Origin: Nitrospiraceae bacterium
Lineage (GTDB): Bacteria > Hydrogenedentota > Hydrogenedentia > Hydrogenedentales > SLHB01
Assembly: GCA_011682535.1 (NCBI GenBank)
Contig: JAACEL010000007.1
Location: 1 to 36,824 of the forward strand
DNA length: 36,824 bases
Direction of reading: 5' to 3'
Part shown: piece after piece, positions 8,105-31,196 of the stretch
Layout: each line of letters begins with the position of its first letter
How positions within the stretch are numbered: position 1 is the first letter of the stretch
The notes under the pieces: generated by a model
What the model was told of the DNA's origin: nothing
Seen by the model: only the letters and a program-made list of their open reading frames with translations
The model's database searches: none
Translations under genes and position numbers: made by a program

Positions 8105-8127
8105 GTGCGCCGCATAGCGGCGCTACT
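8104..8127. terminator. GC-rich hairpin between convergent genes (possible bidirectional terminator)
   Basis: GCGCCGC (8107-8113), ATA loop, GCGGCGC (8117-8123), a perfect 7-bp stem with flanking AGT/ACT. It overlaps both stop codons (8102-8104 and 8123-8125). There is no clear U-tract. Confidence 0.4.
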
Positions 8128-9889
8128 CTGTGTCACGCACCAGCTTATCCAAGATAAGCTGTTCACGTTTGCGCAGCAGCGCCCCGGCCGGACCGAGGCT
8201 CCATCGATATAAAAACACCGATAGCGTCAGCGAAGCAGCGGATAGCAAGGATCCTACGGGCAGCCCCTGGTATCCGTAGCGCCAGCGCATAAACGGGTCC
8301 ACGAACATGCAGCCGGCGGTCGGCAGCATCAAGAGCAGTACCAGCACGAGGGATACGAGCGCGCCAAACAGCGTCATCGCGCGATTCGTCGTCGTCTTCA
8401 AACCCGACCACGCCATGCGGTAGGGAAAGTAGGCCGACACCAAGTTGCCCACCACACTGAACAGCAAGAACAGTTGGACGACGTGCATGCAGGCCATGAA
8501 AACGGCAGCCGGCGGAGGCTTCGTCACCAACACGCTCAGTACCAGTAAGGCGAAACTCAGTCCGGCCATCAGCGGGAACAACGCGGCATTCTTGCCCAGA
8601 AGATACTTGCGCCGCTCGGTGGGCAATAGTACAAGCGCACGAAACCCTTCGGGATCCACGCCGAAGACGTTGAAGAGTAGCATGCCGAAGTTCATGGCTG
8701 GCCACACGGTCACGAGAAAGGGCACGAGACTGTTCCGGACAAGAGAGGCCGAACCCGCGTCGCCAGGCTTGTATATCACGAGACAGATGAGGCCGAACAC
8801 AATCGGCATAAAGAGCATCATGTAGATGTTGGGCTGGCGCAGGTAACTCAGCAGCGACGACATGGCCATCGCCGAGGTGTCGTCGTCGAAAAACGGCAGC
8901 TTCCACTCCGTCCATGGCGGCTTCCGCAGCGCGGAGGACGCCGTCCCCCGCTCCGGCTTCGCCCCGGCGGCGCTGTTGACGCCGGCGTAGTAGCGGTAGG
9001 TCGAGCGATACCCCAGCGCGAGCCCGATGAACATTAAGATCCCGAGTCCCACTACCGGCGCCGCCACGCCCGCGGCGCGTCCCTCGGCCAGGGCACACAC
9101 TCCGTACGGAAGCCAGCCGAACGGCACCACTATATTGCCCCATCGCAATCGCGCCTCGGTCCGCTGCTGCCGCTCAGCCCGACGCTCGCCGCGAATCCGG
9201 CCCTGCTCCTCTTCTGACACACCGCTTTCGGCCAATGCCTTCTCCGCCGCGCGCGCGGCTTCCCGCTGCGGCTTCCACACGGTGTGCTGAAGGATGTTAG
9301 GAAGCTGAAAAAGGAGCACAAAGATCATCGGCAGAATCGTCAGCACCAGCCGGCGCCGTTTCTTGTTCTCCATCAGCGCGGACAGAACCCCGCGCACGTA
9401 ATAGGTCCACGAGGCGAGCGCCAGGTAGAAGAGTACCGCCAACGGTATGGCCAACAGCATGCGAGGCCCCAGATTCCACGCCAGTGCCCCGCACAACGCC
9501 AGCGTGGGTACGATGAACATGATCAAGGCAAACGAAAACAGGGATGCCACATAGTTCATCACGAACACCATGCGCATCGAGACGGGCAGATACAGCATCT
9601 TGCGGAAGTCGATGACCTCGGAACGTTGAAGCTCCATCAACAAAGCCATCGACCAGAATCCCAGGAAGACCACAATGGCTACGTCGCCCAGGACCAGGAG
9701 CGTCCACGCTTGGTCCGCCTCGACTTGGCCGGCGGTCACGACCAGCGCGACCGAGATGCCGATCGAGACGAGGAAGGCGAGCACGGCCATGATGGCGCCG
9801 ATGACAACGGAGGCCGCTTTCCCGGCGGTCATCGTGTTCTTGAGCAGTACGAAGCGAACGGCTATCAAGGCCGCGAACTGGTCACGCAT
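8123..9889 (-). CDS. Polytopic ABC exporter permease (ABC-2-like) with a charged cytoplasmic loop
   Basis: 588 aa with many hydrophobic segments. It overlaps the upstream ATPase gene by 8 nt (9882-9889), as is typical for ABC operons. Confidence 0.8.
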   Translation of the reverse strand: MRDQFAALIAVRFVLLKNTMTAGKAASVVIGAIMAVLAFLVSIGISVALVVTAGQVEADQAWTLLVLGDVAIVVFLGFWSMALLMELQRSEVIDFRKMLYLPVSMRMVFVMNYVASLFSFALIMFIVPTLALCGALAWNLGPRMLLAIPLAVLFYLALASWTYYVRGVLSALMENKKRRRLVLTILPMIFVLLFQLPNILQHTVWKPQREAARAAEKALAESGVSEEEQGRIRGERRAERQQRTEARLRWGNIVVPFGWLPYGVCALAEGRAAGVAAPVVGLGILMFIGLALGYRSTYRYYAGVNSAAGAKPERGTASSALRKPPWTEWKLPFFDDDTSAMAMSSLLSYLRQPNIYMMLFMPIVFGLICLVIYKPGDAGSASLVRNSLVPFLVTVWPAMNFGMLLFNVFGVDPEGFRALVLLPTERRKYLLGKNAALFPLMAGLSFALLVLSVLVTKPPPAAVFMACMHVVQLFLLFSVVGNLVSAYFPYRMAWSGLKTTTNRAMTLFGALVSLVLVLLLMLPTAGCMFVDPFMRWRYGYQGLPVGSLLSAASLTLSVFLYRWSLGPAGALLRKREQLILDKLVRDTE

Positions 9890-11957: not shown

Positions 11958-14234
11958 TCAAGGCATGGGCGTGGGCACGCTGAGGCGCAGCCAGTCGCCG
12001 GTGAGCGCAAGCAGCGGCTCGGGAACGGCTCGAGGCCAGTCCTGGAGTACGCCGTGCATGGCCCCGCCGGCGTCGCGCCACAAGGCGATGTCGACACGTT
12101 CGCCGAGTTCGATATGGAGGCCTCCACCTTGGAAACGCTTCAGCCCACCCGCGGCCAGGGCGTCCAATGCGCCCTCATCGTCGAGACGGACACCCACCAC
12201 GCCCACGGCGTCCACGGTAACGGCATGTCCGTCGACCTCGAACGCGGCCCGAATGGGATCCCCGGCCACGTCTTCGGCGCCGGATACGCGAATTACCGTC
12301 CCGTCGATCAGCCGGCACTCGCCCTGCGTGCCGGGGGCGGCGCTCGACCGGCCGAACTCGGTCATCATGCGTGTGGCCGGTGATTGCGGGCGCACGCCCA
12401 TTTCCCGCAGACGGTCAACCAGAGCCGCCGCGTCGTTCAACGTTTCCATCGCGGCGGGAAGCGCCCCCGCGCCGTCGAACGCGGCCGCCGCGTGGTCGCA
12501 GGCCCATTCACCCACGCGGTAGAGTGCCGTGCTTCCGCCCGCGGCCTTGGCAAACAAGGCGGCCGTCTCGGAACGCTCGAACTCGGGGTGGTACAACACG
12601 GCCGCGCGGTAGCGCTGCGGGCCGTACCTGAGAGTCCCATCGGCATCCACGCGCAACGAGCCGTTGTGTATCTCGCTGCTAGGAATGAGGTCGGCCGGAT
12701 AACCGGCTTGCCACAGGGCGTCGGTGAGCCCAATGCCCACGTCATCATACGAAGGCCCGGCCCAGTTCATGGCGCAGGCATGGCCGAACACGACGGCCAC
12801 CGGGCAGTCCAGCGGGGTACGCGTGATGAAGTTGAGCAAACGAACACGGCAATCCCCGCGCATCAAGCCGCCACGCAGTAACTCCGCATAGGCGTGATAC
12901 TCGGGATGGACGCCTTCGCGGGGGTAGAGCGGGTGATAGTCGATCCGCCCTCCGCCCAAGGCATGCGCCCAGACTTCGGTCCGGTAATCGCCCAGTTTGC
13001 GGGAGTAGTACATGTTGTACCAGACGGGGCTGTTCCATTTCTTGGCCAGAGCGGTACGTGCGCAATAGGGCGTCACTTCGTCCGTCTGCGCGAGGTCGCG
13101 GGTGGCCGTCCACCAGGACAGGCCGTTCTTCTTGAACTCGCGGGTGCCGGGATAGGGATACCATGTCGGGTGGGTGGCCACGATGGCCAATGGCCCGAAC
13201 ACGTCCTTCGTGGCGCGGTAGAAGGCGTCCTCGAGCGCGGCGTTGCGCTGGGTCGACATCTCCAGGAAGGTGTTGATCGCCGCCTGGCGATCGCGTTCCC
13301 TGCCCTGTTCGCCGAAGGTCATCAGCAGGCAATCGCGCACGAGATCGCCGCCCTGGGTACGTTCGGCATAGGCCTCGGCGCGGAAACGGGAGAACCAGTA
13401 GTCGTTCTTGTCGGGGCATCCGTCGAAACAGGGCGGGAACCCCCATTCGTCCTTGCACACACCGGCGAGTTCCGTATCGGCGTAGGACTCGATGATGCTG
13501 CGCTGGAACTGGACCAGGTGGGGCGCGAAGACGGCCGGAGTGAGATGGGTGAACGCCGCGGCGACACACGCCGTGCGGCCTGCGGTTTCCCCGCTACACG
13601 CTATAGATACACGCACTTCCTCCGCGTCCGCCCGGAGAACGGTGCATGCCGCGCCGGTGATGTCGCGCACACTGCCAGGCTCAATGCCGTCGGGGCCGCG
13701 CGTGTACGAGTAGACGCGCACCAAGCGTCCTGACAGCGGGATGTAGTGTTCTGTCGCGAAGGTGTAGTGATCGGAGAGGTCATCGCTGCCGATGCTGAAC
13801 TCGACCGCGCCCGTTCCGTTCAACGCGACTTCCCGCAGGCGTAACATCTCCTGCTGTTCGTCCGGGTGGGCCGCCAGAAAGGCCCGACGGGCCAAGCGCA
13901 CGTCCAGGTCCATGGCGACACGCATACCCAGCCGATTGGCATAGGCGGCCGCTTGCTTGATCTGCTCGTGCACGTCGGCACTCGTCACCTCGCGATTCGG
14001 CGCGCGCAAGGAGGCGGCCAGCACGTTGACGGCGGAGTGCTCGGCCATCATGTCAAGATAAGGTGCGAATCCGTTTGGCGCGAAATCACGCTCCCACCAG
14101 AACCACGCCGCGATCACGGGCAGAACGTCATCGGGCAGGCGTGAGGACACCGCCTGCTGCGCCGTGGCCGTGCCGGCCGCGGCCAACAATCCGAAAACAG
14201 CCACACCACCCAGAATCACCCATTCCCTGTACAC
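11958..14234 (-). CDS. Large secreted hypothetical protein (possibly carbohydrate-active; family not recognised)
   Basis: GTG start at 14234 with GGAGGG 8 nt upstream. Signal peptide MYREWVILGGVAVFGLLAAAGTATAQQ. Coding-like composition over 758 aa. I recognise no catalytic motif. Confidence 0.8.
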   Translation of the reverse strand: MYREWVILGGVAVFGLLAAAGTATAQQAVSSRLPDDVLPVIAAWFWWERDFAPNGFAPYLDMMAEHSAVNVLAASLRAPNREVTSADVHEQIKQAAAYANRLGMRVAMDLDVRLARRAFLAAHPDEQQEMLRLREVALNGTGAVEFSIGSDDLSDHYTFATEHYIPLSGRLVRVYSYTRGPDGIEPGSVRDITGAACTVLRADAEEVRVSIACSGETAGRTACVAAAFTHLTPAVFAPHLVQFQRSIIESYADTELAGVCKDEWGFPPCFDGCPDKNDYWFSRFRAEAYAERTQGGDLVRDCLLMTFGEQGRERDRQAAINTFLEMSTQRNAALEDAFYRATKDVFGPLAIVATHPTWYPYPGTREFKKNGLSWWTATRDLAQTDEVTPYCARTALAKKWNSPVWYNMYYSRKLGDYRTEVWAHALGGGRIDYHPLYPREGVHPEYHAYAELLRGGLMRGDCRVRLLNFITRTPLDCPVAVVFGHACAMNWAGPSYDDVGIGLTDALWQAGYPADLIPSSEIHNGSLRVDADGTLRYGPQRYRAAVLYHPEFERSETAALFAKAAGGSTALYRVGEWACDHAAAAFDGAGALPAAMETLNDAAALVDRLREMGVRPQSPATRMMTEFGRSSAAPGTQGECRLIDGTVIRVSGAEDVAGDPIRAAFEVDGHAVTVDAVGVVGVRLDDEGALDALAAGGLKRFQGGGLHIELGERVDIALWRDAGGAMHGVLQDWPRAVPEPLLALTGDWLRLSVPTPMP

Positions 14235-18922: not shown

Positions 18923-19258
18923 CAAGCGCCCTGCCGTGCGCGATTCATCGAGAGTTGGCTATCCGGCGGCCCGTTGTTCCGGTTGCCGGGCTTGCGCGTT
19001 AGAGGCCTTTTCAGCTATCTGCTCGGTCTCCCTTGGAGGGCAGCCCCCCCGGGTGGCCACGTCCACAGCGCGTTGCCACGCGGAGGCGAAGCAGAACCCG
19101 TCCCCCTGAGAATTGATTTTTGCCCTATTGGTTGCCTACCATGGAGTTTCTGCGGAATACAGGTTCTCCAACAAGCCATCTCGTACGATCTCCGTGCAGA
19201 GTTGGAGTATTTCAAATGGCTCATTGTGGCTGCTCACTTTGTGGAAGAGGATACCCGC

Positions 19259-20992
19259 ATGGGTAATGGACAAAGCCGGATGGCCGGAGTCTTTCACGCC
19301 ATTTTATCAAACTTTCCGTATGTGGCCCTCTTGGCAGGCACCGTGTTGTGGTGTGTGGAGAAGGGGCCTATCTCGTGGCACCTATCGCATAAGTATGCCT
19401 GCATTCTGTCGATCGTAGCGGTTGCGATCACCGTAGGATTCAGCATGTTGCGCCGCTGTAACCCGGAACTGGCTTGGCCCTGGCATTGGCGGAAAATGTC
19501 GCCCAAAGGCATTTCGTCGAAGATCCTCTTTGCCGTTCTAATCTGCACGTCCATTTTCGGGGTCTTCAACTACTACAAATTCGACAAGAAAGTGTTGACG
19601 ACGGTCCGAGATTATATGGACGTTATCTACTACTACACCAACTCGAAGTACTTCGACGAGTTGGGCCACTTCGACCTCTACCCGGCGATCTTGCTGGCCG
19701 ATCAGGAAGGCCCCAACCGCTTGAAGCGCATTAGATCCTTTCGCGATCTGCGCACCTACAAGCACGTGCGGCGCACAAGCGGACTGACACCGAAACGCAT
19801 CAAGGAAATCAAGGACAACTTCTCCCCTGAACAGTGGCAGGCGTTTCAACATGACGTCAATTTCCTGACACAACACTATCGCAACTGGAAATACGTCATG
19901 GCGGATCGCGGTTACAATCCGCCAGCAACCTGGACCGTGGTTGGCGGCACGTTGAGCAGCGCCACGCCTATCGAGAAGATGAAGTATATAACGATGGTCG
20001 ATTTTGTGCTCATGGCGATCATGTTTGTCGTGATTGCCAGGGCCTATGGCATGTCCGTGATGCTGTTTGCCTTGCTATGGTACTCGCTTACGTTCAGTGG
20101 GCGGTGGCCGATCCTGGGGGAGGCGCTACTGCGCTTCGACTGGGTGGCCACTTCGATCATGGGCATCTGCATGCTCAAGATGAAACGCCACGCCATGGCC
20201 GGCGGGCTGATGACCTATGCGGCACTCAGCCGCGTGTTTCCAGCCATCTTCGTGTTCCCCTATTTCGTGCTCATGGCCCGCGATTGGATCCGCGACCGCA
20301 AACTCGCCACTGAGCACATCCGTTTTCTTGTCGGGTGTACGGTGGTTTTCACGGTTCTGTGCGGGGCCACGTATGTACGTCTTGGCCCCAAGGCTTTTGT
20401 TGAGACTGTGGAGAACCTCTCCGTCCATGCCAAGTCCTACAGTTCCCATCGCGTTGGACTTGGGGATGCGCTGGTCTATCGTGGCGAACAAGATAAAGCC
20501 GACCTCGCCAAGAGTGGTGGCATAGCTGGGAAGAAAGCCCAGGTCAACGCAATGAAGCCGCTCCTTTACGCGGCGGGGTGCGCCACATTGGCGCTCATCA
20601 TTATCTATGTGTTTCGTACGCGCCACGCCGCCTTCAATCTAATCATGCTATCGACGATTCCCCTGTTCTGCATGACCAACGCACAAACCAATTACTACAA
20701 CCTTCGGTTGATGCTCATCATCGCCCACGCGTCGGATTTGAAGCGATGGCGGAACAAGGTGGGATTGATCCTACTCTTCCTAGTCGAGACGGCCACCCAG
20801 TTCGCCATGTACAAAGGATACATGCGCTATCTCGTAACCACGGTGATGTCCTACGGAATGCTGGTCTATTTTGTGGTGCTCATCGGTTTCATGATTGCTG
20901 AGATCATCAAGCCGGACCTGGAAACAGATGAGCCTGATACGGACGATAAAGTGCCGCGCGGCGAGCCTGAATCTGAACCCGAACCGGCGTAG
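19259..20992 (+). CDS. Polytopic membrane protein, uncharacterised (possible GT-C-like glycosyltransferase), acidic C-terminal tail
   Basis: I prefer the ATG at 19259 (GGAAGAGGA upstream). It lies in frame inside track ORF 18974-20992, whose first 95 codons look non-coding. There are about 12 or more hydrophobic segments. The loop motif YFDELGHF lies at 19652-19672. This is the lowest-GC part of the window. Confidence 0.8.
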   Translation: MGNGQSRMAGVFHAILSNFPYVALLAGTVLWCVEKGPISWHLSHKYACILSIVAVAITVGFSMLRRCNPELAWPWHWRKMSPKGISSKILFAVLICTSIFGVFNYYKFDKKVLTTVRDYMDVIYYYTNSKYFDELGHFDLYPAILLADQEGPNRLKRIRSFRDLRTYKHVRRTSGLTPKRIKEIKDNFSPEQWQAFQHDVNFLTQHYRNWKYVMADRGYNPPATWTVVGGTLSSATPIEKMKYITMVDFVLMAIMFVVIARAYGMSVMLFALLWYSLTFSGRWPILGEALLRFDWVATSIMGICMLKMKRHAMAGGLMTYAALSRVFPAIFVFPYFVLMARDWIRDRKLATEHIRFLVGCTVVFTVLCGATYVRLGPKAFVETVENLSVHAKSYSSHRVGLGDALVYRGEQDKADLAKSGGIAGKKAQVNAMKPLLYAAGCATLALIIIYVFRTRHAAFNLIMLSTIPLFCMTNAQTNYYNLRLMLIIAHASDLKRWRNKVGLILLFLVETATQFAMYKGYMRYLVTTVMSYGMLVYFVVLIGFMIAEIIKPDLETDEPDTDDKVPRGEPESEPEPA

Positions 20993-21006: not shown

Positions 21007-22413
21007 CTATAGATATCCGAGCGCTTCGAGATCCTGCTCTTCTTTGGGCGTCAGTTTCCGATCGGGGATCGTTGTATCCAGATCCGTCTTCACCCCCGTT
21101 TCCCGCACATTCAGAAACACGTCCATTTTCCGTACAAGTTTCGATGCGACTTCCGGACGGTCAGCGACCCGATTGATCAACTCCCCGGGATCTTCGACAA
21201 GGTGGTAGAGTTCCGTGATGCCCTTGGTGCTGTGGATGTACTTGTAGGGCCATTGGACCAAGGCTGTCCGTTTCCGATCGAATCGTTTGGCGTACGGCTT
21301 GGAATTGAACTCGCGTTTACGATCGCCCATCAGGTGGTTCTCGCATAGCAGGGCGGCGCCCCCGGGCGCATGGGGGAACTGTGCGGCATGGCGTTCGGCC
21401 ATGGCCTCTGGCAAGGCCTGCAAAATCATGCGGGGAAGATGCACCAGCGAAATGGGTGAATCGACAACCTTCTTCTGCTGCTGTCCGGGATACTTGATGA
21501 GCAGCGGCACGCGGATCTCGGGTGCATACACATCCAGGCAGTGTTCGGCGAGCCGGTGTTCGCCGAAGCTCTCACCATGGTCTGAGGTAATGATGATCAC
21601 GGTGTTGTCCCAAAGCCCCAATGCTGTCAGCTTTGCCAGTAACACGCCGACCGCCGCATCGATGTGGGCGATCGCCGTATCGTACTGATCAATGACACGG
21701 CGAACCAAATCGGAGGAAATGGGGCGATCCGTTGCCAGGACGAGATTTATCAGTTTCTTGATAAGGTATTTATCCTGCGACACGGGCTCATCGATCAAGC
21801 CCGGAATGGGCGTAGTGTTATACGGACGATGCGCATCAATGTAATTGATGAAGAGGAAAAAGGGAGATCGGGCATTCGAGGTCAGCCAATTATCTATCTG
21901 TTCATTGGTCTTGGGCGCATACATCCGCTCGATGAGGCGGGTATCAAACCCTTGAAGCACCTGGCGTCCTTTGAAATTCGTGTTCGCACTGATCGCTCCG
22001 GTTGCATACCCTTCCTGAGACAATAACTCGGCCAGGGTAACATGCTTTTCAGACAGGGGGCGTACTTTGGCGATAGGCCGCCCGGTTTCGGACAGTTGCC
22101 TGAAGGCATGCGCGCCGTGCTCAAATGAATAGCGTCCCGTAAACATCGACGCATGTGTAGGAATAGTCCAGGGCGACGTCGCAAAGGTACGAAGGTACTG
22201 TGTGGCCCGTGATGCGAAGCGGTCGATACACGGTGTTGCGGGCCGTTGTGCCCCATAGCATCCCACATGGTCGGCACGGACCGTGTCGAGGACGATCAAT
22301 ACGATGTTGGGCGCAAGGCCGCTATGCCGAACGCCACACCCCCATTGGGAACCCGCGACGAAAGGCATACCGGCCAATGCGAGGTTACGCATGAATTTAC
22401 GGCGGGTCAACAT
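21007..22413 (-). CDS. Sulfatase-fold (alkaline-phosphatase superfamily) exported enzyme with Thr-type active-site motif; probably not a true sulfatase
   Basis: Tat-like MLTRRKFMRNLALAG. NIVLIVLDTVRADHVG is the first metal-binding block. The C/S-x-P-x-R position reads T-I-P-T-H (22153-22167). Later sulfatase-family blocks ITSDHGESFGEH are present. Confidence 0.85.
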   Translation of the reverse strand: MLTRRKFMRNLALAGMPFVAGSQWGCGVRHSGLAPNIVLIVLDTVRADHVGCYGAQRPATPCIDRFASRATQYLRTFATSPWTIPTHASMFTGRYSFEHGAHAFRQLSETGRPIAKVRPLSEKHVTLAELLSQEGYATGAISANTNFKGRQVLQGFDTRLIERMYAPKTNEQIDNWLTSNARSPFFLFINYIDAHRPYNTTPIPGLIDEPVSQDKYLIKKLINLVLATDRPISSDLVRRVIDQYDTAIAHIDAAVGVLLAKLTALGLWDNTVIIITSDHGESFGEHRLAEHCLDVYAPEIRVPLLIKYPGQQQKKVVDSPISLVHLPRMILQALPEAMAERHAAQFPHAPGGAALLCENHLMGDRKREFNSKPYAKRFDRKRTALVQWPYKYIHSTKGITELYHLVEDPGELINRVADRPEVASKLVRKMDVFLNVRETGVKTDLDTTIPDRKLTPKEEQDLEALGYL

Positions 22414-22519
22414 CTGTTCTTGACAGTCCTTTCATGCTGCATATTCTGCGTGTTCCGGCGATGGCGCTCACGTAGTCCCAAGGTTTCGGGCCACTTGTCG
22501 GAGCGTGCAACAATGCGCC

Positions 22520-23167
22520 CTACACCCTCCCCACCCCTGGCAGGTTGAACGTGGTGGTGTGGGGCCACACTTCCTGCTCGCGGCTGGGGGCGAGGAAACA
22601 GGTATGGCCTCGCTCCTCGTGTGGGGGTTTGTGCCAACAGACTACGCCCCGTTTGAGGAAATCTTGGCCGAGGCAGCACAGGGTGGCGGGCACTTTCTTC
22701 CCGAGACAGAGATGGAACTGGGGAATCTTCAAACCCCAGTCGATATAAGGGCTTGCAACTGCGACGCGCAGACGCGACAAGACCAGGCCGCGGAAGATCG
22801 CGGGCCGCTGGCTGGCGCTGGGCAGGTAGCGCGTGGCGTCAACGTATGGGGGAAGTGCCCGGCCTGGACCCAAGGGGCTGCGTATGGCGCGGTGACGAAC
22901 AAGCTCCTCCCATCCGCGCCATACGGCGCGGCCGACGAATGAGAAGGGCAGGTCGGGACGCACCTCGAAGAATACCTTCGGGATGGGCGTGAAGGCACGC
23001 AGGTTGCGCGGAGTGACGGGCCGGTTCTGATAGTCGACCAGGTATAGGTCGAACACGAGCCGCCTGACGCCTTGAACGCCGTCCAGAGTAAACAGGCCGT
23101 TGCCCTCGATAAACGCAGGCCCGTATTCGCCGGACTGAGGCGCGGATCGTCCAAACCGCAGACTCAT
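22520..23167 (-). CDS. Hypothetical 215-aa protein, last gene of the ATPase/kinase/receiver module; no family recognised
   Basis: In-frame ATG at 23167-23165 inside track ORF 22520-23449. Its A is shared with the receiver gene's TGA (TGATG). GGAGAGGAGAG lies upstream. From this Met on, composition and GC3 are coding-like (MSLRFGRSAPQSGEYGPAFIEGNGLFTLDG...). The upstream 94 codons are Arg/Gly/Pro-rich and overlap the receiver gene. Confidence 0.7.
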   Translation of the reverse strand: MSLRFGRSAPQSGEYGPAFIEGNGLFTLDGVQGVRRLVFDLYLVDYQNRPVTPRNLRAFTPIPKVFFEVRPDLPFSFVGRAVWRGWEELVRHRAIRSPLGPGRALPPYVDATRYLPSASQRPAIFRGLVLSRLRVAVASPYIDWGLKIPQFHLCLGKKVPATLCCLGQDFLKRGVVCWHKPPHEERGHTCFLAPSREQEVWPHTTTFNLPGVGRV

Positions 23168-23793
23168 CAGGCGCTCTCCTCTCCGGGAATTTCGATCACA
23201 TCGGGGAAATCGGGCCAGTTGGGATGGGTATCCATCTTGTCGTTGTAGCGCACGAGCGCTTCGAGGCGATTGGTTCCGTGGGCGACCACGCGCTTGCCCA
23301 CGAGAACGATGAACTCGCCCGGGTATTTGTCTTCCCACTTCGCGTAGTTGCGGGCCATCAGTTCCTCGACCTCTTCCTTGCGCTTGAGGTCGGCCATCTG
23401 ATCGAGGAAGATCTGCTCGATCCGGGTACCCAGATCGGCGGGATCGCATTTGCGCTTGCAGATGAAGTCGCTGGCGCCGAACTGGATCGATTTGATGATG
23501 TTCGAGTCGCTGTCATACTCGGAGAAGACGATGATGGGATCGCCGGGGAAGCGGATCGTGCGATCCAGGATCACGCGGAGCCCGCAGACGGGAAACCTCC
23601 CTTTGACCAGTTCAAGATCGACGACGACCAGATCGAACCGTCTCTCGTGAAAGCCCTTTTTCAGGTACTCCGATGGCCCAGAAGCCACGGCCACGGTAAA
23701 GTCGAACCGCGTCGAATCGAGCAGGCTGGCCTCGATGGCGGCGGACGCGTCTACATCATCCTCAACAACCAGAATGGATTTCTTCTCGGGCAT
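23167..23793 (-). CDS. Response-regulator receiver protein with about 70-aa non-HTH C-terminal domain (DUF5678-like by memory)
   Basis: ATG at 23793 with AAGGAGG 7 nt upstream. The track start at 23799 is a GTG. Receiver signature: ILVVEDD, phospho-acceptor D59 in DLVVVDL (codon 23617-23619), IIVFSEY, DFICKR. The tail is YAKWEDKYPGEFIVLVGKRVVAHGTNRLEAL. Confidence 0.85.
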   Translation of the reverse strand: MPEKKSILVVEDDVDASAAIEASLLDSTRFDFTVAVASGPSEYLKKGFHERRFDLVVVDLELVKGRFPVCGLRVILDRTIRFPGDPIIVFSEYDSDSNIIKSIQFGASDFICKRKCDPADLGTRIEQIFLDQMADLKRKEEVEELMARNYAKWEDKYPGEFIVLVGKRVVAHGTNRLEALVRYNDKMDTHPNWPDFPDVIEIPGEESA

Positions 23794-23795
23794 CC

Positions 23796-26700
23796 TCACC
23801 CTCCTTTTTCAATCACCGGCAGGTAAATCATAAAGCACGCGCCTTGGCCGTAGCGCCCCTCCTCCGTCATCTCACCGCCCAACCGCCTCACGTGCCGCCG
23901 CGCTATCGACAATCCAAGCCCCGTTCCTTGCGGATGGTACGTCCGGAACGGATGAAAGATCGTCTCCTTGTTGCGGCTCGGCACGCCTCGCCCGTTGTCG
24001 CGACAGGCGATCCGGACGAATCTCTTGGAAGCCGCCTGAAGAACGGCAGGCGGTTCGGCCAGCGCGGCGCCTAATTCCAAGCGCACGCCGGGTTTGCCAT
24101 GTTTTATGCTATTTTCCGCGAGTATTTCAAGCACCTCGAAAAACGCACGCCGGCTGACGTCGACCGACACGCGCGGTGCACGCCCCACGAGCCGAACCGC
24201 ACCCACGCCGGGAAACTGGTCGGAGATGTTGGCGCGCCCTTCTTTCAATAGGTCCCACACGCTCACTACCTCCGTGTCCTCGAAAGGATTGTCGGCCGCG
24301 TACTGTTTGAAGTCGTCGAGGATATGGAAGGCCCGGTCGAGACTGATCCGGGCCTTGCGCAGGAAATCTTCCACTTGGGGCGTCTCGTCCGTACAACGCC
24401 GTTCGGCGAGTTTGATGAACGACCGCGCCGCCCCGACTTTCGCGGCCAACTGGTGCGCCGCCATGGCCGACGAGGTCTTCCACGCCTCTTCCACAGCCCG
24501 CTCGGCGTCCTCCTCAGAGCGCCGCGCTTCGTCCAGGGCGGCGGCGGCGCCTGCCACGGCGATGCGCAGCAACTCCCACGCGGCGGGCCGCAGGTCGGTG
24601 GGCATCGAGATGGACAGCTTGCCGATACACCGTTGCCCGACGCACAGCGGGGCCTCGATCCACGGCGCGCTCCCTTTCTCCAGGTTCCGCTTGGATTGCG
24701 CCTCTCTCACCTGGAACCGGGGCAGTCCGTTGGCGGGCGGCGCCTCGACGATCCTGTTCGCCCGAATGCCCTTGCGTTCTTCGTAGGTCGTCAGATCCTT
24801 GGTCACCTCGATGGCGTGCCACGGCTGCGGATCCTTGCCGCCCCGGGCATAGCGCACCCCCCCGTCCCGGAACAGGTTCCGGTGGCCCTGATTGCGCATG
24901 CCGAACTGCTCGAAGCTCTCGATCCACTCCTCGTCCTGCGTCTTTTGGACCAGGTAGATGCGCCCCCACTGGAATCCCTCGCGCTCGAAGAACCCCAGTA
25001 TGCGCCGTGCCGTTTCGCGCGTCCCTTGCTCTGTCAGCCAGTCCTGAAACGCGCGCACCACGCTATACAGGCCCGACAGATCGTGGATGCGCTCCACGTA
25101 CCCGATCCGGCCGTTGGCCTCGAACGGAGGCTCCAGCGCCGCCCGGAAGTCGTCGATCGGCGCCATCAGCCAGTCGTGCGCGCGGGTTTCTTCGCCGGGG
25201 AGAATGTGGTAGCGATGGACGGGCCGGTTCCCGCGCGCCACGTCGCGGATCAGGCATTCCTCCTCGCTTGACTCGGCTTCGGAACGCCGCAAGCATCGGT
25301 GGTGAAGCGGGCGCGCCTGCCATCCAGGACGCCATTCGCCGTCATCGGCGGCGGCCTGATTGAGGAACAGGATCTGCCGTTGCGCGTCGACGATGCGAAT
25401 CTTGTCCGTCAACACGGACACCGACTGCTGGAGCAGCATGAGCCGTTTGGCTTGGTGAAACACGGCGGCGATCTGGCTGGCCAGCGTGCGGAACAGGTCG
25501 CATTCGGCGCTCGACGGCACTTCACGGTCCTGGCGCTCGAGGTGGATTGTTCCGATCACTTCATCGCCGATTCTCATCGGCACCACGGCGATGGCCTTCA
25601 TCCCCATCTCCGCCGCCCTGCGCCAGTTCGTCGCCGGGTTAACCTGGCCGGATGAAGAAGCATCACGGACAACGCAGATCTCGCCTTTGCGAACCACCCA
25701 AGGCTGAACGTCGCATTGCTCGATCGGGGCGCCGTCGTTGAGGGCGTAGTTGGTCTTGTAGTGGAATTCCGCGGCCCGCCGGTGGTGGGCCTGGGCCACG
25801 GCCTCGATCCGTTCCCGAAGCGGGTCGACCAGGCAGATCAGCACGCGGAAGTAGCCCGCCTCCTGGATCAACGCTTCCGCGGCCCCGCGTACGACGTCGC
25901 CCATATCGAGAGGGTCGTTGGCCAGCAGCCGGTTGACCTTGGCCATGATCTCGTAGTGCTTGGCATAGAGCAGCCCGATTTTCTGGCGGAACTCGATCTT
26001 GCAGGCCGTGTCATAGGCATGCCAGAAATGACCAAGCACGCGGCTGACTTTTTTCTGCTCAGCGGAGTCGATGTCGCGGCCGAACCCTCTGCGTTCCAAC
26101 GACAACACCGGCCGGGATTCGGGGGTCCACGACAACTGAATCTGCGGATCCGAGTAGACGCTGGTGCGCAGGTTGTCCAGCCAGTCCCGCCGCTTGGCGC
26201 CATCATCACGCGGAATCGCAACGGACGGCCTTCCCGGTTCCGGTACAAACAGCCGGCCTTGACCGAACGAACTCACCCGCACGAGATCCTTGGGGTTCGG
26301 AGGCTCGTCGCAAGGGGGGCTACCGGGCGCGTGGTACAGCCCGCCCGCGTCAAAACCCAGCAAGTACTTCGCCCCCAGGTAGAACTGCTCACAGACCGCT
26401 TCGGGTCCGTCGTCCACGAAGGCGGCGAAGCTGTTGCGCCACCGCGACAGGACGGAACGCAGGCGGAACGTCGCATGACCCGACACCGGACGGAACCGTT
26501 GCGCCGCGGGCAGTCTGCGATAGCAGGCCCACGCCTTGTCCCATTGACGTTGCCAGGCGTACACGTCGGCCACATGGCGTCCGTTCACCGAGCGCTTGAG
26601 AAACCGATGCCATATCGGAGAAAAGACCACGGCCATGCCGTCACGTTCCCGGCGCAGTAGTCCCGAGACTTCCAGTTGATGCGGCTGTGCGCCCGGCAGC

Positions 26701-27632
26701 GGGGCTTTGCCCTCTCGCAAAACCTGCATCAGCAGTTCGAACGACTCAGGCATGTGCTCGACCTCGCGCAGCGCCATGCGGCAGAAGAAGTCATTCTGCA
26801 TCGACGATTCGACAAAGCTCTTGACGCAGGTCCGGGTCTGTTGCAGATTCCAGCGTCCGCCCAGTTCGAAATGTTGGAGCGTGTAGGGGTGGCGCGCGGC
26901 GGTCACGACGATTTCCTGAATGAGGTGGATGCACCCGCCCGTCTGCTCGTAGAGATAGTCGAAGGCCTTGGGCGTGATCTCGCGATCCAGATCGATCTGC
27001 TCCGGGGGCACGTCCGGGTCGGCCGTTAACTCGCCCCGCTGGCGCATGCGGCGGCAGCAGTAAAAGCGGGCCGCGTAATCCCTGTCCGTCCCGCGAAGCA
27101 CGAACTGTTCGGCATGTCGATAGGGCGACAACTGGCCATAGGTGAGGGGAATGAAGTCCGCACTGCCCGTCACCACCACCGCCAGCCGCTCTTGAAACGA
27201 ACCCGCCTTGCACTGGTGAAAAGCATTGAGCAATTCGCGGGCAATGGGGACCGGAAAGCCGAGGATGTCTTGCACGAACAGCCATAACGGACGCAGGCGG
27301 TTTCGAAGCAACCGCTCAAACAGGCGATCGAGCTTGCCCGACAGGGGCGTGGCGGCTCCTCCGAGCGAACGCGCCTCCACCCCAAGACGCTGGGCCAGCG
27401 TGCGCACGAAGCGCTCCTCGCCCATGGTCCGAAAGTCGTCCCACATCAGCCGCACCACCTGCGGCCGTACCGGTTCGGGCTGACGTAGACTCCGTTGGGC
27501 GAGTTCCTCGAGTACCAGGGCTTTGCCGCTATTGCGCGGCCCCAAGAGCGCCAGGTGACTGCCCGATTCGAGCCGTCCCAGCAGCAGGTCGAACAGGTCG
27601 CTCCCAATCTGGCTGTACGTCTGCTTGGCCAT
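23796..27632 (-). CDS. Multidomain sensor histidine kinase: N-terminal P-loop STAND/AAA-like NTPase + winged-helix-like region, linker, GAF, PAS-like, GAF, DHp, HATPase_c
   Basis: ATG at 27632 with GGAGG upstream. Walker A GPRNSGKA (27519-27542), Walker B LWLFVQD. GAF-like regions are GYFRVLICLVDP...AIAVVPMRIGDEVIGTIHLER and GFQWGRIYLVQ...PLCVGQRCIGKLSISM. The H-box is SAMAAHQLAAKV (His codon 24453-24455). N-box LAENSIKHG, G1 DNGRGVP, F IFHPF, G2 GTGLGLSI. Confidence 0.9.
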   Translation of the reverse strand: MAKQTYSQIGSDLFDLLLGRLESGSHLALLGPRNSGKALVLEELAQRSLRQPEPVRPQVVRLMWDDFRTMGEERFVRTLAQRLGVEARSLGGAATPLSGKLDRLFERLLRNRLRPLWLFVQDILGFPVPIARELLNAFHQCKAGSFQERLAVVVTGSADFIPLTYGQLSPYRHAEQFVLRGTDRDYAARFYCCRRMRQRGELTADPDVPPEQIDLDREITPKAFDYLYEQTGGCIHLIQEIVVTAARHPYTLQHFELGGRWNLQQTRTCVKSFVESSMQNDFFCRMALREVEHMPESFELLMQVLREGKAPLPGAQPHQLEVSGLLRRERDGMAVVFSPIWHRFLKRSVNGRHVADVYAWQRQWDKAWACYRRLPAAQRFRPVSGHATFRLRSVLSRWRNSFAAFVDDGPEAVCEQFYLGAKYLLGFDAGGLYHAPGSPPCDEPPNPKDLVRVSSFGQGRLFVPEPGRPSVAIPRDDGAKRRDWLDNLRTSVYSDPQIQLSWTPESRPVLSLERRGFGRDIDSAEQKKVSRVLGHFWHAYDTACKIEFRQKIGLLYAKHYEIMAKVNRLLANDPLDMGDVVRGAAEALIQEAGYFRVLICLVDPLRERIEAVAQAHHRRAAEFHYKTNYALNDGAPIEQCDVQPWVVRKGEICVVRDASSSGQVNPATNWRRAAEMGMKAIAVVPMRIGDEVIGTIHLERQDREVPSSAECDLFRTLASQIAAVFHQAKRLMLLQQSVSVLTDKIRIVDAQRQILFLNQAAADDGEWRPGWQARPLHHRCLRRSEAESSEEECLIRDVARGNRPVHRYHILPGEETRAHDWLMAPIDDFRAALEPPFEANGRIGYVERIHDLSGLYSVVRAFQDWLTEQGTRETARRILGFFEREGFQWGRIYLVQKTQDEEWIESFEQFGMRNQGHRNLFRDGGVRYARGGKDPQPWHAIEVTKDLTTYEERKGIRANRIVEAPPANGLPRFQVREAQSKRNLEKGSAPWIEAPLCVGQRCIGKLSISMPTDLRPAAWELLRIAVAGAAAALDEARRSEEDAERAVEEAWKTSSAMAAHQLAAKVGAARSFIKLAERRCTDETPQVEDFLRKARISLDRAFHILDDFKQYAADNPFEDTEVVSVWDLLKEGRANISDQFPGVGAVRLVGRAPRVSVDVSRRAFFEVLEILAENSIKHGKPGVRLELGAALAEPPAVLQAASKRFVRIACRDNGRGVPSRNKETIFHPFRTYHPQGTGLGLSIARRHVRRLGGEMTEEGRYGQGACFMIYLPVIEKGG

Positions 27633-27647
27633 CTCCGCCCTCCGCTT

Positions 27648-29195
27648 CTACAACGCGTTGACGAACGTGTCGACGTTCGGATAGGTATCGGTCAGAATCT
27701 CGCGAAACACGGGGAACGTGAACGTATAGCCCCCTTTTTGGAACCGGAGAACGCACGCGTTGCGCAGGTTGGTCACCGCGCGGTGTATCTCGTCGAGCTT
27801 CTGCGGCCGCCCAGCTTGGGCGCACGCTTCCAGAAAGCGCCCCTCAGCCCAAGGGTCCGTGGTTTGGGCCTGCGCGTAGAGATAGGCGCACAGACGCTCG
27901 CTCGCCACGGGAACGCCGTTGTCCAAGGTATTCTCCAGAAAATGTCCCACGAGAAACTTCGTCAGTTCGTAACTCACCCCGATATCTTCCACATCGCCCA
28001 GATTGAGGCCGGCAGCGCTACGCTCCGAGGCAAGTTGATAGAGTTGCTCGCCATAGAACTGCACGAGAAACGGATAGCCTTCCGTAGCCTGCCAGATCCG
28101 GTCACACACCACGTCTTCGTTCTCGATGGGGATGCCGATGCTTTGGAACGGCTCGGCGATCAGCGAAAACGTCTCGCCACGCGTGAGCGACTTCAACGTC
28201 AACGGCTCCAGCGATCCGTGGAACGGACTGTCCCCCAGCGCCAGCCGCGTCATCGAGCGATACCCCGCAAACACCACCCGGATCCACCGGGCACTCGCCG
28301 CCTCGGCCAACACTCGGAAAAACGGCCAGTCGTTGGCCTCGTCGATGTCGACCACCCGGTCCAATTCGTCGAAAAACAGCAACAACGGCTTCGAGCCGCG
28401 TGCACTGCGGCGCTCGAACATGTACGAGACGTTCCGGATTCCCTTCTCGATGCGCAGCTCGCGTTTCGGGTCCACCTCGTGGGCAATGCGGTCGAAACAG
28501 TCCCAGTGCGTGCCCCACGTCAGACACGTGAAGCAGCGCACACGTCCGCGGTACTCGGGATGGATGCGCAGCACGTTCGTGGCCTTCTTCAGCAACGAGG
28601 TCTTTCCCACCCGGCGCGCGCCGTTGACGACGAAGTGCGTGTCCAACTGACTGGTCAGACGCTCCACCTCGTGTGCGCGGCCCTTGAACATGGCCCCGCG
28701 CGCCTCTTCCGTCGTGTTGAACGGGCAGACCTGCTGCAGGTTCACCTGGCGCCGGATGACCTCGAACAACACAGAGGACGGCACCTGCGCTGAAAACAGG
28801 CGTTCCAGATCGGCGCCGCAGATGAACACCGGGTGCAGGGAGGGCGGCACGAAAGGGTTGGGGGTCTCCAGATCCCACGACAACACGATATACAGGCAGA
28901 ACCCAAGCGATTCGACGGTGCTCTTGTACTGCGCGAGCAAGTTGGCCTGTTCGTGGGCTTCCTCGTCGTTTTCCGGGGGATGCGCCACCATCACCACGTT
29001 CAGGTCCATCTCCTTGAAGCCACCGAGGTGGCTCAGGTCCAGCAAGAACAGCGCCGCACGATGCACGCTCGCGTCCGCGATCTGTTCCGCCTCGAACAGA
29101 TCGGCAATCGCGCTCATCAACCGGCCGGCCGCGCCGCACGTGTCGGGCTTCTCCTCCCCGCACGCCGCGCGCCACAATCGCTGAAAATCGGGCAT
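27648..29195 (-). CDS. AAA/STAND-like ATPase (Arch_ATPase/ORC-Cdc6-like P-loop + winged helix) with unassigned about 160-aa N-terminal domain
   Basis: F(K)GRAHEVERL precedes Walker A GARRVGKTS (28596-28622). Walker B LLLFFDELD. VVFAGY is a sensor-1-like strand, and EGYPFLVQFYG is present. The C-terminal GGYTFTFPVFREIL is winged-helix-like. It is the first gene behind the promoter at 29240-29268. Confidence 0.85.
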   Translation of the reverse strand: MPDFQRLWRAACGEEKPDTCGAAGRLMSAIADLFEAEQIADASVHRAALFLLDLSHLGGFKEMDLNVVMVAHPPENDEEAHEQANLLAQYKSTVESLGFCLYIVLSWDLETPNPFVPPSLHPVFICGADLERLFSAQVPSSVLFEVIRRQVNLQQVCPFNTTEEARGAMFKGRAHEVERLTSQLDTHFVVNGARRVGKTSLLKKATNVLRIHPEYRGRVRCFTCLTWGTHWDCFDRIAHEVDPKRELRIEKGIRNVSYMFERRSARGSKPLLLFFDELDRVVDIDEANDWPFFRVLAEAASARWIRVVFAGYRSMTRLALGDSPFHGSLEPLTLKSLTRGETFSLIAEPFQSIGIPIENEDVVCDRIWQATEGYPFLVQFYGEQLYQLASERSAAGLNLGDVEDIGVSYELTKFLVGHFLENTLDNGVPVASERLCAYLYAQAQTTDPWAEGRFLEACAQAGRPQKLDEIHRAVTNLRNACVLRFQKGGYTFTFPVFREILTDTYPNVDTFVNAL

Positions 29196-29239: not shown

Positions 29240-29268
29240 AGTGTATTCATGCGGCCCGTCCGATGCAA
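29240..29268 (-). promoter_or_regulatory. Putative sigma70-type promoter TTGCAT-N17-TACACT for the four-gene ATPase/kinase module
   Basis: Minus strand: -35 at 29263-29268, 17-nt spacer, -10 at 29240-29245. It lies about 45 nt upstream of the ATG at 29195. Confidence 0.4.
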
Positions 29269-29624: not shown

Positions 29625-31196
29625 ATGAGCGAACGTACACAATGGACCCGCCGCGGTTTCATGAAGGCGGGTGCGGGCGCGGCGGCCTTGGTGGCCACGA
29701 GCGGCAAGGGGAATGGAATGAGCACGGATCGGAAAAAGGAAGCGCGCAGACCCAATATCCTACTGCTGATGGCGGACCAGTTCCGGGGCGATTGCCTGTC
29801 ATCCGACGGGCACCCCGCCGTGCGCACCCCCAACCTCGACCGCATCGGGGAGGAAGGCGTCCGGTTCCGGTGCGGCTACTCGACCACGCCTACCTGCACG
29901 CCCGCGCGGGCGGGTCTCCTGACGGGACTCGGCCCTTGGCGGCACGGGATGCTGGGCTACGCGCGCGTCGCGCCCGAATACCCGCTCGAAATGCCCCGCG
30001 CGTTGCGTGAGGCGGGTTATTACACCATGGGCATCGGCAAGATGCATTGGCATCCCCAACGCAATCTGCACGGATTCCATGATGTCCTGCTCGACGAGTC
30101 GGGCCGGGAAGAATCCTACGACTTCAAGAGCGACTACCGCTGCTGGTTCGCGTCGCAGGCGCCCAATCTCGACCCCGATGTGACGGGCATTGGGTGGAAC
30201 GAGTTCCAGGCCAAACCGTACGCGCTGCCCGAAGAACTGCACCCGACGCACTGGACCGGCGAAACCGCCGTCCGCTTTCTCAGCACCTACGAACGGGAGG
30301 AGCCGTTCTTCCTCAAGGTCTCGTTCGCCCGGCCGCACAGTCCCTACGACGCCCCGCAGCGCTTCTTCGACCAGTACACCGACGCCGACATCCCCGCTCC
30401 GTCCATCGGCGACTGGGCCGGGCGGTACACTGAACGTAGCGGCGACGACCCCAACATCTGGCACGGCGACCTCGGCCCCGAGCAGGCCCGCTGGTCCCGG
30501 CAGGGATACTACGGCTCCATTTCCTTCATCGACGAGCAGGTCGGCCGCATTCTGGACGCGTTGGAACAGCGCGGCTTGATCGACGATACGCTGATTATCT
30601 TCACCGCCGACCACGGCGACATGACCGGCGACCACCACATGTGGAGAAAGTCGTACGCCTACGAGGCCTCCGCCCGAATCCCATTCCTCATGCGCTGGCA
30701 TGAAGGCGCCACGTCCGAACAGCGGGGCCAGGTCTCCGAAGCTCCCGTCGAACTGCGCGACATCCTCCCCACGTTCCTCGACGCGGCCGGAGGAGCAGGC
30801 GCGGAGCAATGCGAAGGACGGACGCTCCTCGACCTCTTCCGTGGGAAGGCCGGCGAATGGCGTCCCTGGATCGACCTCGAGCACGACGTGTGCTACAGCC
30901 CCAAGAATCATTGGAACGCGCTCACCGACGGCAAGGTCAAATACATCTTCCATACGTACGACGGCGAAGAGCAGCTATTCGACCTGGAAAACGACCCGGG
31001 GGAGTGCACGGACCTCGCGCGCGACCCGGCGCATGCCGACACGCTCCACACATGGCGCAAATGCCTTGTGGAACATCTCGCCGAGCGTGGCGAGGCCTAC
31101 GTCAAAGACGGTCAACTCGCCCTACGCCCCGAACGGATGCTCTACTCGCCCCACTATCCCAAGGTCGAGACGCCCAAGAAGAGACGCAGGGGTTAG
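29625..31196 (+). CDS. Arylsulfatase-family, formylglycine-dependent (Cys-type) sulfatase with Tat signal
   Basis: GGAGAG SD. WTRRGFMKAGAGAAALVA is a Tat motif. NILLLMADQFRGD is present. The canonical C-T-P-A-R lies at 29895-29909, followed by AGLLTG. Also IIFTADHGDMTGDH. Confidence 0.9.
   Translation: MSERTQWTRRGFMKAGAGAAALVATSGKGNGMSTDRKKEARRPNILLLMADQFRGDCLSSDGHPAVRTPNLDRIGEEGVRFRCGYSTTPTCTPARAGLLTGLGPWRHGMLGYARVAPEYPLEMPRALREAGYYTMGIGKMHWHPQRNLHGFHDVLLDESGREESYDFKSDYRCWFASQAPNLDPDVTGIGWNEFQAKPYALPEELHPTHWTGETAVRFLSTYEREEPFFLKVSFARPHSPYDAPQRFFDQYTDADIPAPSIGDWAGRYTERSGDDPNIWHGDLGPEQARWSRQGYYGSISFIDEQVGRILDALEQRGLIDDTLIIFTADHGDMTGDHHMWRKSYAYEASARIPFLMRWHEGATSEQRGQVSEAPVELRDILPTFLDAAGGAGAEQCEGRTLLDLFRGKAGEWRPWIDLEHDVCYSPKNHWNALTDGKVKYIFHTYDGEEQLFDLENDPGECTDLARDPAHADTLHTWRKCLVEHLAERGEAYVKDGQLALRPERMLYSPHYPKVETPKKRRRG

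Follow-up and report, generated by a model that had tools for sequence, protein, structure and literature searches.

A conserved four-gene bacterial cassette that combines paralogous AAA+ modules, a histidine kinase, a receiver and a putative retropepsin-fold protein

The defensive two-component system Detocs comprises the kinase DtcA, the buffer receiver DtcB and the receiver-effector DtcC (bioRxiv 10.1101/2023.01.24.525353), and NTPases of the nSTAND1 group have been described in predicted conflict systems (Kaur et al., 2021; PMC8195603). Actinobacterial conservons (PMC13343842) are four-gene operons that encode the kinase-like protein CvnA, CvnB, CvnC and the GTPase CvnD. Here a four-gene cassette is characterized computationally in a stretch of 36,824 nucleotides (nt) from an assembly named Nitrospiraceae bacterium (GenBank GCA_011682535.1, contig JAACEL010000007.1, positions 1 to 36,824), which is part of a 55-kb metagenomic scaffold and is termed the window hereafter. 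The cassette encodes a AAA+ ATPase (gene 1), a cytoplasmic histidine kinase that carries a degenerate copy of the AAA+ module (gene 2), a receiver with a DUF5678-like tail (gene 3) and a small beta-rich protein with a probable retropepsin-like fold (gene 4). This composition is new and conserved. A preliminary description of the locus, made from the sequence alone, knew of no system with the same components; likewise, none was found in PADLOC, Pfam, NCBIfam, PHROGs or the literature, in which no search was aimed at coupling between AAA+ proteins and histidine kinases.

By sequence criteria the cassette is a two-component system for which phosphotransfer is predicted. It shares with classical systems the invariant H-box histidine, the G1, F and G2 boxes, cytoplasmic GAF/PAS sensors and the D-D-K triad of the receiver. 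It differs from them in that the kinase bears an N-terminal degenerate AAA+ module and is preceded by an apparently active AAA+ paralogue, the receiver output is DUF5678-like rather than DNA-binding or enzymatic, and a dedicated fourth protein is present. Phosphotransfer, a receiver that lacks a DNA-binding output and a possible non-transcriptional effector are reminiscent of Detocs. However, no Detocs hidden Markov model (HMM) matched the cassette, in which a stand-alone buffer receiver is missing and the receiver bears no fused effector domain (PNP, REase, TOPRIM or transmembrane), and Detocs itself includes neither a AAA+ partner nor a retropepsin-like protein. The resemblance to Detocs in logic but not in components that was suggested initially thus holds, and the cassette also is unlike Ambrosia. 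The likeness to conservons (PMC13343842) is one of analogy only: both are four-gene operons in which a histidine kinase-like protein is linked with a switch of the P-loop NTPase type and with accessory proteins of unknown function, but the Ras-like GTPase, roadblock and DUF742 components of conservons are unrelated to the AAA+ paralogues, receiver and retropepsin-like protein described here.

The four genes are tightly packed on the minus strand at 22520-29195 in the order gene 1-2-3-4. The TAG stop codon of gene 1 is followed by the 15-nt spacer AAGCGGAGGGCGGAG, which contains GGAGG, and then by the ATG of gene 2. Gene 2 ends in ...AAAGGAGGGTGA, after which GG and the ATG of gene 3 follow, and genes 3 and 4 overlap in TGATG. 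The four open reading frames (ORFs), their coordinates, the spacer and the TGA-GG-ATG and TGATG junctions all were read in the sequence as first described. A GTG codon at 23799 that overlaps the gene 2 stop is an alternative start for gene 3. In all four frames GC content is highest at third and lowest at second codon positions (GC3 > GC1 > GC2), including every 50-codon segment of gene 4, whereas a plus-strand ORF over gene 4 (22505-22942) was rejected as coding because its GC3 lies below its GC1. Hydrophobic segments are lacking from all four proteins, and the cassette is soluble by this measure. The promoter-like site TTGCAT-N17-TACACT that had been proposed upstream of gene 1 could not be upheld: it agrees with the consensus at seven of 12 positions and is not listed by a promoter scan of the region that returned one site compared to 1.6 expected from shuffled sequences. 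The 106 nt that separate gene 4 from the downstream sulfatase gene hold no terminator-like site according to the scan, and transcription therefore may read through from gene 4 into the latter. Rfam and tRNA scans revealed no RNA genes in the window.

The distribution of the cassette was traced in loci, denoted by L numbers, that were collected from gene 1 homologues and from scans of genomes and metagenomes. The same gene order recurs in about 20 contigs, with representatives in Planctomycetota, Armatimonadota (Chthonomonadales) and Acidobacteriota. A gene 2 homologue directly follows gene 1 in 18 of the 20 distinct loci with enough downstream sequence, L011 and L081 being the exceptions, and the third position is occupied by a receiver in all 16 loci examined. 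Context look-up placed gene 4 directly after the kinase and receiver for six of eight family members, the other two of which are on truncated contigs. Further members detected by HMM or jackhmmer (L084, L082, and L012) have the same position and, with the window included, each of the 10 informative loci has gene 4 behind the kinase and receiver. The junctions in homologous loci are overlapping or a few nucleotides long; that between genes 1 and 2 is tight or overlapping also in L003, L005, L006, L153, L154, and L159. The conserved synteny that the preliminary description had put forward for examination is therefore a recurrent one, and on this sequence evidence the genes are one co-inherited module with apparent translational coupling. 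The cassette is rare, with a few dozen metagenomic instances in poorly tractable phyla.

Conservation decreases from gene 1 through genes 2 and 3 to gene 4, with identities of 50, 41, 37, and 27.5%, respectively, between the window and L159. Gene 4 shows 27-39% identity where gene 1 retains 50-57%, and by this comparison is the fastest-evolving part of the cassette. The receivers of L006, L008, and L013 lack the DUF5678-like tail, and gene 4 also is missing from these loci. Because of this co-absence and the patchy occurrence of gene 4, genes 1-3 are regarded as the conserved core, with gene 4 and the receiver tail forming a co-varying, fast-evolving pair with a predicted output role. The post-receiver ORFs of L003, L009, and L010 (~200 amino acids; aa) matched the gene 4 family with hhalign probabilities of <1% and had no Pfam matches. 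The ORF in L010 (7236-7850, 204 aa) nevertheless aligns in register with the gene 4 pattern FDxxhW ... PxVxFxhxxxxPF (23-79 versus 23-78), albeit with no statistical backing (hhalign probability 0.3%), and may be an extremely diverged gene 4. In L156 (1028-5440) the kinase is not preceded by a gene 1 homologue, and a 908-aa protein without Pfam matches and a 1.4-kb stretch without called genes are found instead. In L006 (226-5000), genes for bAvd/23S_rRNA_IVP and RNase_H/RVT_3 proteins that lie 4-8 kb upstream of the module may be remnants of a diversity-generating retroelement.

Gene 1 has 24 full-length homologues with identities of 34-57%, and the names given to family members in their sources are absent or "hypothetical protein". 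The protein exceeded the Pfam cut-off for nSTAND1 (PF20703; 37.9 bits versus 27.1) over profile positions 10-239 of 379 only, and scored below the threshold for ATPase_2 (26.4 versus 33.2 bits). The family profile (25 members) matched PDB entry 2fna best (E 7.5e-8), followed by Cdc6 and ORC1. Foldseek comparison of the AlphaFold2 (AF2) model, which has a predicted local distance difference test (pLDDT) score of 86.5, placed 2fna and 2qen at the top (E ~1e-9), then ORC/Cdc6, RuvB and RFC, with plant NLRs lower. As the whole chain was used, this result is dominated by the AAA+ core and does not resolve the N-terminal domain separately, and the alignment with ORC/Cdc6 and Arch_ATPase structures is a match at the level of the chain rather than domain by domain. 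Gene 1 is thus a AAA+ protein of the ORC/Cdc6/Arch_ATPase type as judged by sequence profile and predicted fold, and it possesses both P-loop motifs (Walker A, GxxxxGK[ST]; Walker B, hhhhD[DE]). In contrast to ORC/Cdc6 initiators, there is no replication initiator context, one of the paralogues is fused to a histidine kinase, and the ATPase_2 score is below threshold.

The earlier label "STAND-like" suits the NTPase core of gene 1, which matches nSTAND1, but not the remainder of the protein. Pfam detected NTPase-core families only and no TPR, WD40 or LRR repeat domain, the C-terminus is a short helical and beta region, and the strict STAND architecture of NTPase, arm and C-terminal sensor-repeat array is not present. 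Accordingly, although gene 1 resembles nSTAND1, STAND and NLR-like NTPases and Avs in its core, and plant NLR resistosomes are among its lower structural matches, it differs from them in the lack of a repeat array or known effector-associated domain and in signaling that would proceed via a separate kinase. In the AF2 model the C-terminal region consists of helices (399-479), two strands (483-486 and 489-492) and further helices, a pattern of helices with a beta-hairpin that we read as looking like a winged helix. The N-terminal domain, in which W8, E14, D53, N66, G98, D129, and R132 are conserved, is predicted to have the order alpha-alpha-beta-beta-beta-alpha-beta-beta-alpha-alpha and had no relatives in Pfam or PDB profile searches. 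A reading of this domain as a degenerate PD-(D/E)xK nuclease (E14...D53...D64-x-N66 in an alpha-beta-beta-beta-alpha-beta arrangement) was considered and is not claimed. Gene 1-like AAA+ cores also occur behind ~300-aa N-terminal extensions in L015, L024, and L087.

The N-terminus of gene 2 is a paralogue of the gene 1 AAA+ core. Homologues of this region were gathered from the loci, as a word-indexed search gave a single truncated match, and the resulting set of 16 N-termini aligned with the gene 1 family in hhalign with a probability of 91.9% (E 6.9e-7) over 198 columns. The alignment brings together the Walker A, Walker B, sensor-1 strand and GYPFLVQ/GGCIHLIQ pairs on which the preliminary description had based the paralogy. 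The best PDB match of the region was ORC4 (E 4e-4), and it did not match Pfam nSTAND1. In Walker A, K37 is invariant among the 16 homologues and position 38, where the Mg-binding Ser/Thr is expected, is Ala in nine and Ser/Thr in five. Eleven of these homologues retain Asp in Walker B; the residue that follows is never acidic, so that a catalytic Glu is missing from every homologue. The kinase-borne copy is catalytically degenerate by these sequence features. Thus, of the initial proposal that two NTPases feed the relay, the presence of both modules stands, but probably only gene 1 hydrolyzes ATP. The pairing of an active with a degenerate AAA+ paralogue is reminiscent of ORC. A 959-aa protein in L014 (8522-11401) with tandem nSTAND1/ATPase_2 modules at aa 34-258 and 603-811 resembles the pair of gene 1 and gene 2 N-terminus in fused form, and is consistent with paired ATPase modules that work jointly.

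The remainder of gene 2 has the organization of a soluble sensor kinase. Pfam recognized GAF and HATPase_c domains, which together with nSTAND1 in gene 1 and Response_reg in gene 3 agrees with the domain calls made at the outset, and a second GAF-like region lies downstream of the PAS-like segment. Among 16 homologues the G1 (DNGxG), F and G2 (GTGLGL) boxes are invariant or nearly so. As Pfam HisKA did not match gene 2, the assignment of the DHp domain rests on the alignment, in which the predicted phospho-accepting histidine is retained throughout. Taken with these boxes, gene 2 has an intact kinase core by the sequence criteria for histidine kinases.

Gene 3 was described initially as a receiver without a DNA-binding output. 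Pfam indeed detects no DNA-binding domain, but the protein is not a bare receiver and carries a conserved C-terminal domain of ~70 aa that resembles DUF5678 (PF18929). The match of gene 3 to DUF5678 (22.4 bits) is just below the cut-off of 23.2, weak matches are found in five of 16 gene 3 homologues, and the tail ends in a conserved WPxxPxhhxI motif. In the receiver proper, D12, D59, and K113 are invariant and Response_reg is matched in 16 of 16 homologues, so that by the sequence criteria for response regulators the domain appears functional. No function for DUF5678 was described in the literature searched, where it is mentioned only in an unrelated plant-pathogen proteomics study.

The gene 4 protein was termed an orphan in the preliminary description. 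Although a word-indexed search returned the query alone, phmmer, run exhaustively against 1.84 billion representatives, retrieved 17 homologues of 184-233 aa with identities of 28-41%, and the orphan is therefore a member of a family that is tied to the module. The protein had no match in Pfam, NCBIfam, PADLOC or PHROGs. Its AF2 model, built with the alignment of these homologues, is confident and mostly beta (pLDDT 82.4; predicted TM-score, pTM, 0.80). Foldseek matches in the PDB were cathepsin D (E 0.04, probability 0.90), plasmepsins, FIV protease and Ddi1, and those in BFVD were a retroviral F-pol, a siphovirus aspartic protease, Gag-Pol and a crAss-like retropepsin-like protein (E 0.004-0.016, probability 0.8-1.0). 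These top matches point to clan AA (HIV and FIV proteases, the Ddi1 RVP domain and cathepsin D), from which gene 4 differs in the lack of D-T/S-G and of sequence-profile similarity, in its length of ~200 aa with insertions, and in TM-scores of 0.26-0.56. The scores being modest, the retropepsin/pepsin-like fold is probable and not certain.

Conservation within the 17-member gene 4 alignment is concentrated at a few positions. W83, G167, and G174 are invariant and Y108 and C164 nearly so, and the motif C-C-L-G-x-D-F-L-x-x-G-L-L-C is kept; every one of the 17 members has an acidic residue within G-x-[DE]-x-L. We take the C-C-L-G-x-D-F-L motif to resemble the C-terminal hhG-x-D/N-x-L helix motif of retropepsins; in known retropepsins the residue in G-x-D-x-L serves the structure and not catalysis. 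The catalytic D-[TS]-G is not conserved in the alignment. The candidate strand for it reads F-D-L-x-L, and its Asp is replaced by Asn or Ser in four of the 17 members. The suggestion that gene 4 could be the effector finds no recognizable toxic domain in its favor and, with a probable retropepsin-like fold devoid of the catalytic motif, a role as toxic effector is putative.

The interpretation preferred here, with a rough probability of 0.45, is that the cassette specifies a soluble four-protein two-component pathway with a AAA+ switch as input and a protein partner, instead of DNA binding, as output. Gene 1 would be the sole competent ATPase, with its private N-terminal domain as the sensing or regulatory part, and would pair with its degenerate paralogue at the kinase N-terminus in the manner of the mixed active and inactive subunits of ORC or clamp loaders. 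ATP-dependent assembly or remodeling of this hetero-complex, together with ligands of the GAF/PAS domains, would gate autophosphorylation of H1060, from which the phosphoryl group would move to D59 of the receiver. Phosphorylation of D59 would alter the engagement of gene 4 by the DUF5678-like tail with its WPxxPxhhxI end. Lacking a D-T/S-G site, gene 4 most likely would not be a protease but an adaptor that binds peptides or proteins. The analysis shows the domain content, the paralogy and the degeneracy of the second ATPase, the intact residues of kinase and receiver, the probable fold class of gene 4 and the tightly coupled, conserved order of the genes; we infer the physical interactions, the direction of control and the output in this scheme.

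Several observations weigh against this interpretation. Gene 4 is absent from L005, L006, L008, and L013 and undetectable in L003, L009, and L010, and is therefore dispensable for the three-gene core. Full-length gene 1 homologues with no adjoining kinase are found in L011 (6827-9044, 46% identity) and L081 (879-2648, 42% identity); the former is followed by a gene for a 130-aa RRM_1 protein. DUF5678 is uncharacterized and the gene 3 match to it is below threshold. The fold matches of gene 4 are weak in absolute terms (TM 0.26-0.56, E 0.004-0.04), and the family alignment has no match in Pfam or among PDB sequences and hence no profile link to clan AA. Furthermore, the N-terminal domain of gene 1 might act as an effector and not as a sensor, and binding of DNA by the C-terminal region of gene 1, which we read as a winged helix, might reverse the assumed flow of information.

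The alternative that fares best is an anti-phage or conflict system with Detocs-like logic in which an invader would be sensed by the AAA+ pair, the alarm passed on by the kinase, and gene 4 or the N-terminal domain of gene 1 set free by the phospho-receiver as an effector that arrests growth. This is considered unlikely. The nSTAND1 group was defined in predicted conflict systems (PMC8195603), defensive two-component systems exist in the form of Detocs and Ambrosia, and the rarity of the module, its patchy occurrence over at least three phyla, the rapid evolution of its last gene and a receiver without a DNA-binding output are compatible with such a role. Integrase, recombinase or NACHT neighbors were noted in three of about 18 loci (L005, L154, and L156). 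Those in L154 and L156 are integrase or recombinase genes. In L005 (8045-12113) a 1013-aa NNH3/NACHT (NLR-like) protein stands in place of gene 4 and a phage-type integrase comes after it, and this is the only locus in which the module abuts a recognizable conflict-type gene.

However, PADLOC-DB v2 contained no meaningful match for any of the four proteins, the best (E 0.0075-0.06) being to P-loop or receiver fragments such as weak mad8 and PDC-M60B hits. Among 73 neighboring proteins in eight genomes (L008-L013, L082, and L084) there were four PADLOC matches at E <= 1e-10, all of weak context (mad2 twice, mad3 and PDC-M60C), and the Pfam families listed for the neighbors are housekeeping ones. 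The PDC-M60C match had an E-value of 7.8e-54; PDC-M60C, mad2 and mad3 are not among the ten largest neighbor proteins. These counts show neither enrichment nor exclusion of the cassette near defense genes. No recognizable toxic domain is encoded, gene 4 is without the aspartic protease catalytic motif, and GAF/PAS inputs are typical of small-molecule sensing.

The surroundings of the cassette are mostly of a housekeeping kind. In the window it is flanked by genes for sulfatases, pectate-lyase-like proteins, a GDSL esterase and oxidoreductases, with uniform GC content (62% for the contig), and other loci are set among housekeeping genes for tRNA synthetases, isocitrate dehydrogenase, urease, YidC, thiamine pyrophosphate enzymes and ABC transporters. 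The preliminary description had noted the matching GC content and had held a housekeeping role to be equally possible; both points stand, and the evidence does not favor defense. A specialized regulatory role is somewhat more likely than immunity. A more explicit immune scheme, in which a heteromeric AAA+ sensor of active subunit and kinase-borne pseudo-subunit issues a phosphoryl signal that frees a diversifying retropepsin-fold effector from a DUF5678-like tether, is less likely again. The sulfatase genes that bracket the cassette in the window (21007-22413 and 29625-31196) belong to a polysaccharide-degradation neighborhood. In L160 (1317-10156) the distant gene 4 homologue P0031 adjoins three sulfatase genes and a PhoD gene, and the shared sulfatase context may reflect related hosts or a recurring context.

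A reversed flow of information is improbable. Input here would come from the kinase and receiver, and gene 1 would serve as output in the form of an ORC/Cdc6-like DNA-binding ATPase that is recruited via the kinase pseudo-ATPase for transcriptional regulation or another action on DNA. The gene 1 model aligns with the DNA-binding ORC1/Cdc6, its C-terminus in our reading resembles a winged helix, DNA-binding domains are absent from the other components, and the two gene 1 homologues without a kinase make a function of its own possible. On the other hand, no tie connects gene 1 with either gene 4 or the receiver, most proteins of the Arch_ATPase type are uncharacterized and DNA binding by gene 1 is putative, and the position of gene 1 as first gene of the operon, fixed beside the paralogous module of the kinase, fits an input partner equally well. 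Least probable is genuine proteolysis by gene 4 from a non-canonical active site, such as the F-D-L Asp, the G-x-D/E-x-L acid or Cys164, with the phospho-receiver as activator or substrate: aspartic proteases and retropepsins are the best structural matches in two libraries and these residues are retained in all or most members, but D-T/S-G is found in none, the first Asp is variable, Pfam and PDB sequences give no match, TM-scores are low, and the G-x-D-x-L residue has a structural role in known retropepsins.

If the two-component interpretation is correct, the cassette would represent a new form of histidine kinase control, in which an active AAA+ module and a degenerate one act as an ORC-like pair with one of the two on a separate protein, and a new non-transcriptional output through a receiver with a DUF5678-like tail and a retropepsin-fold protein. 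It would supply the first functional contexts for the gene 1 N-terminal domain, the DUF5678-like tails and the gene 4 family, and would link the nSTAND1/Arch_ATPase group, so far only predicted in conflict systems, with phosphorelay signaling. As the cassette is small, soluble and self-contained, the proposed interactions can be tested in vitro. It is rare, is confined to uncultured lineages and has no phenotype attached, and its importance is potential rather than demonstrated. Features of the cassette are compiled in Table 1.

Table 1. Positions of the cassette genes and their features in the window (coordinates are those of the 36,824-nt stretch; aa, amino acids).
Feature	Coordinates	Strand	Remarks
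Promoter-like site TTGCAT-N17-TACACT	29240..29268	-	Present; 7/12 consensus positions; not better than chance
Gene 1	27648..29195	-	515 aa; AAA+ ATPase (nSTAND1 / ORC-Cdc6 / Arch_ATPase type) with private N-terminal domain
Gene 1 N-terminal domain	28722..29195	-	aa 1-158; family-specific alpha/beta; candidate sensor
Gene 1 AAA+ core and lid	28026..28703	-	aa ~165-390
Gene 1 Walker A, GARRVGKTS	28596-28622	-	K198 invariant, T199 nearly invariant (25 sequences)
Gene 1 Walker B, LLLFFDEL	28362-28385	-	D276 and E277 invariant (25 sequences)
Gene 1 C-terminal region	27651..28025	-	aa ~391-515; helical, ends in beta-hairpin; read as winged helix
Spacer between genes 1 and 2	27633..27647	-	15 nt, GGAGG inside; read in the sequence
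Gene 2	23796..27632	-	1278 aa; cytoplasmic kinase: degenerate AAA+ / helical region / GAF / PAS-like / GAF-like / DHp / HATPase_c
Gene 2 N-terminal pseudo-ATPase	26904..27569	-	aa 22-243; paralogue of gene 1 AAA+ core
Gene 2 GAF	25464..25898	-	aa 579-723; exceeds the Pfam cut-offs for GAF (50.9 bits) and GAF_2 (36.8 bits)
Gene 2 PAS-like segment	25149..25409	-	aa 742-828; PAS_4 E 0.037, 14.7 bits, below cut-off (weak)
Gene 2 H1060 codon	24453..24455	-	Predicted phospho-accepting His (AAHQLAAK); invariant in 16 homologues
Gene 2 HATPase_c	23814..24146	-	aa 1163-1273; Pfam 56.9 bits; DNGxG and GTGLGL boxes
Gene 3	23167..23793	-	208 aa (counted from ATG); response regulator
Gene 3 receiver domain	23419-23775	-	aa 7-125; Response_reg 39.8 bits
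Gene 3 phospho-acceptor D59	23617-23619	-	Predicted; invariant in 16 homologues
Gene 3 DUF5678-like C-terminal domain	~23170-23376	-	Conserved, ~70 aa
Gene 4	22520..23167	-	215 aa; soluble beta-rich protein of a small fast-evolving family

Elsewhere in the window, three long ORFs on the two strands had no Pfam match at E <= 1e-5. These are located at 8123-9889 (minus strand), 11958-14234 (minus strand) and 18974-20992 (plus strand) and specify proteins of 588, 758, and 672 aa, respectively, the last of which looks like a multi-pass membrane protein by sequence.

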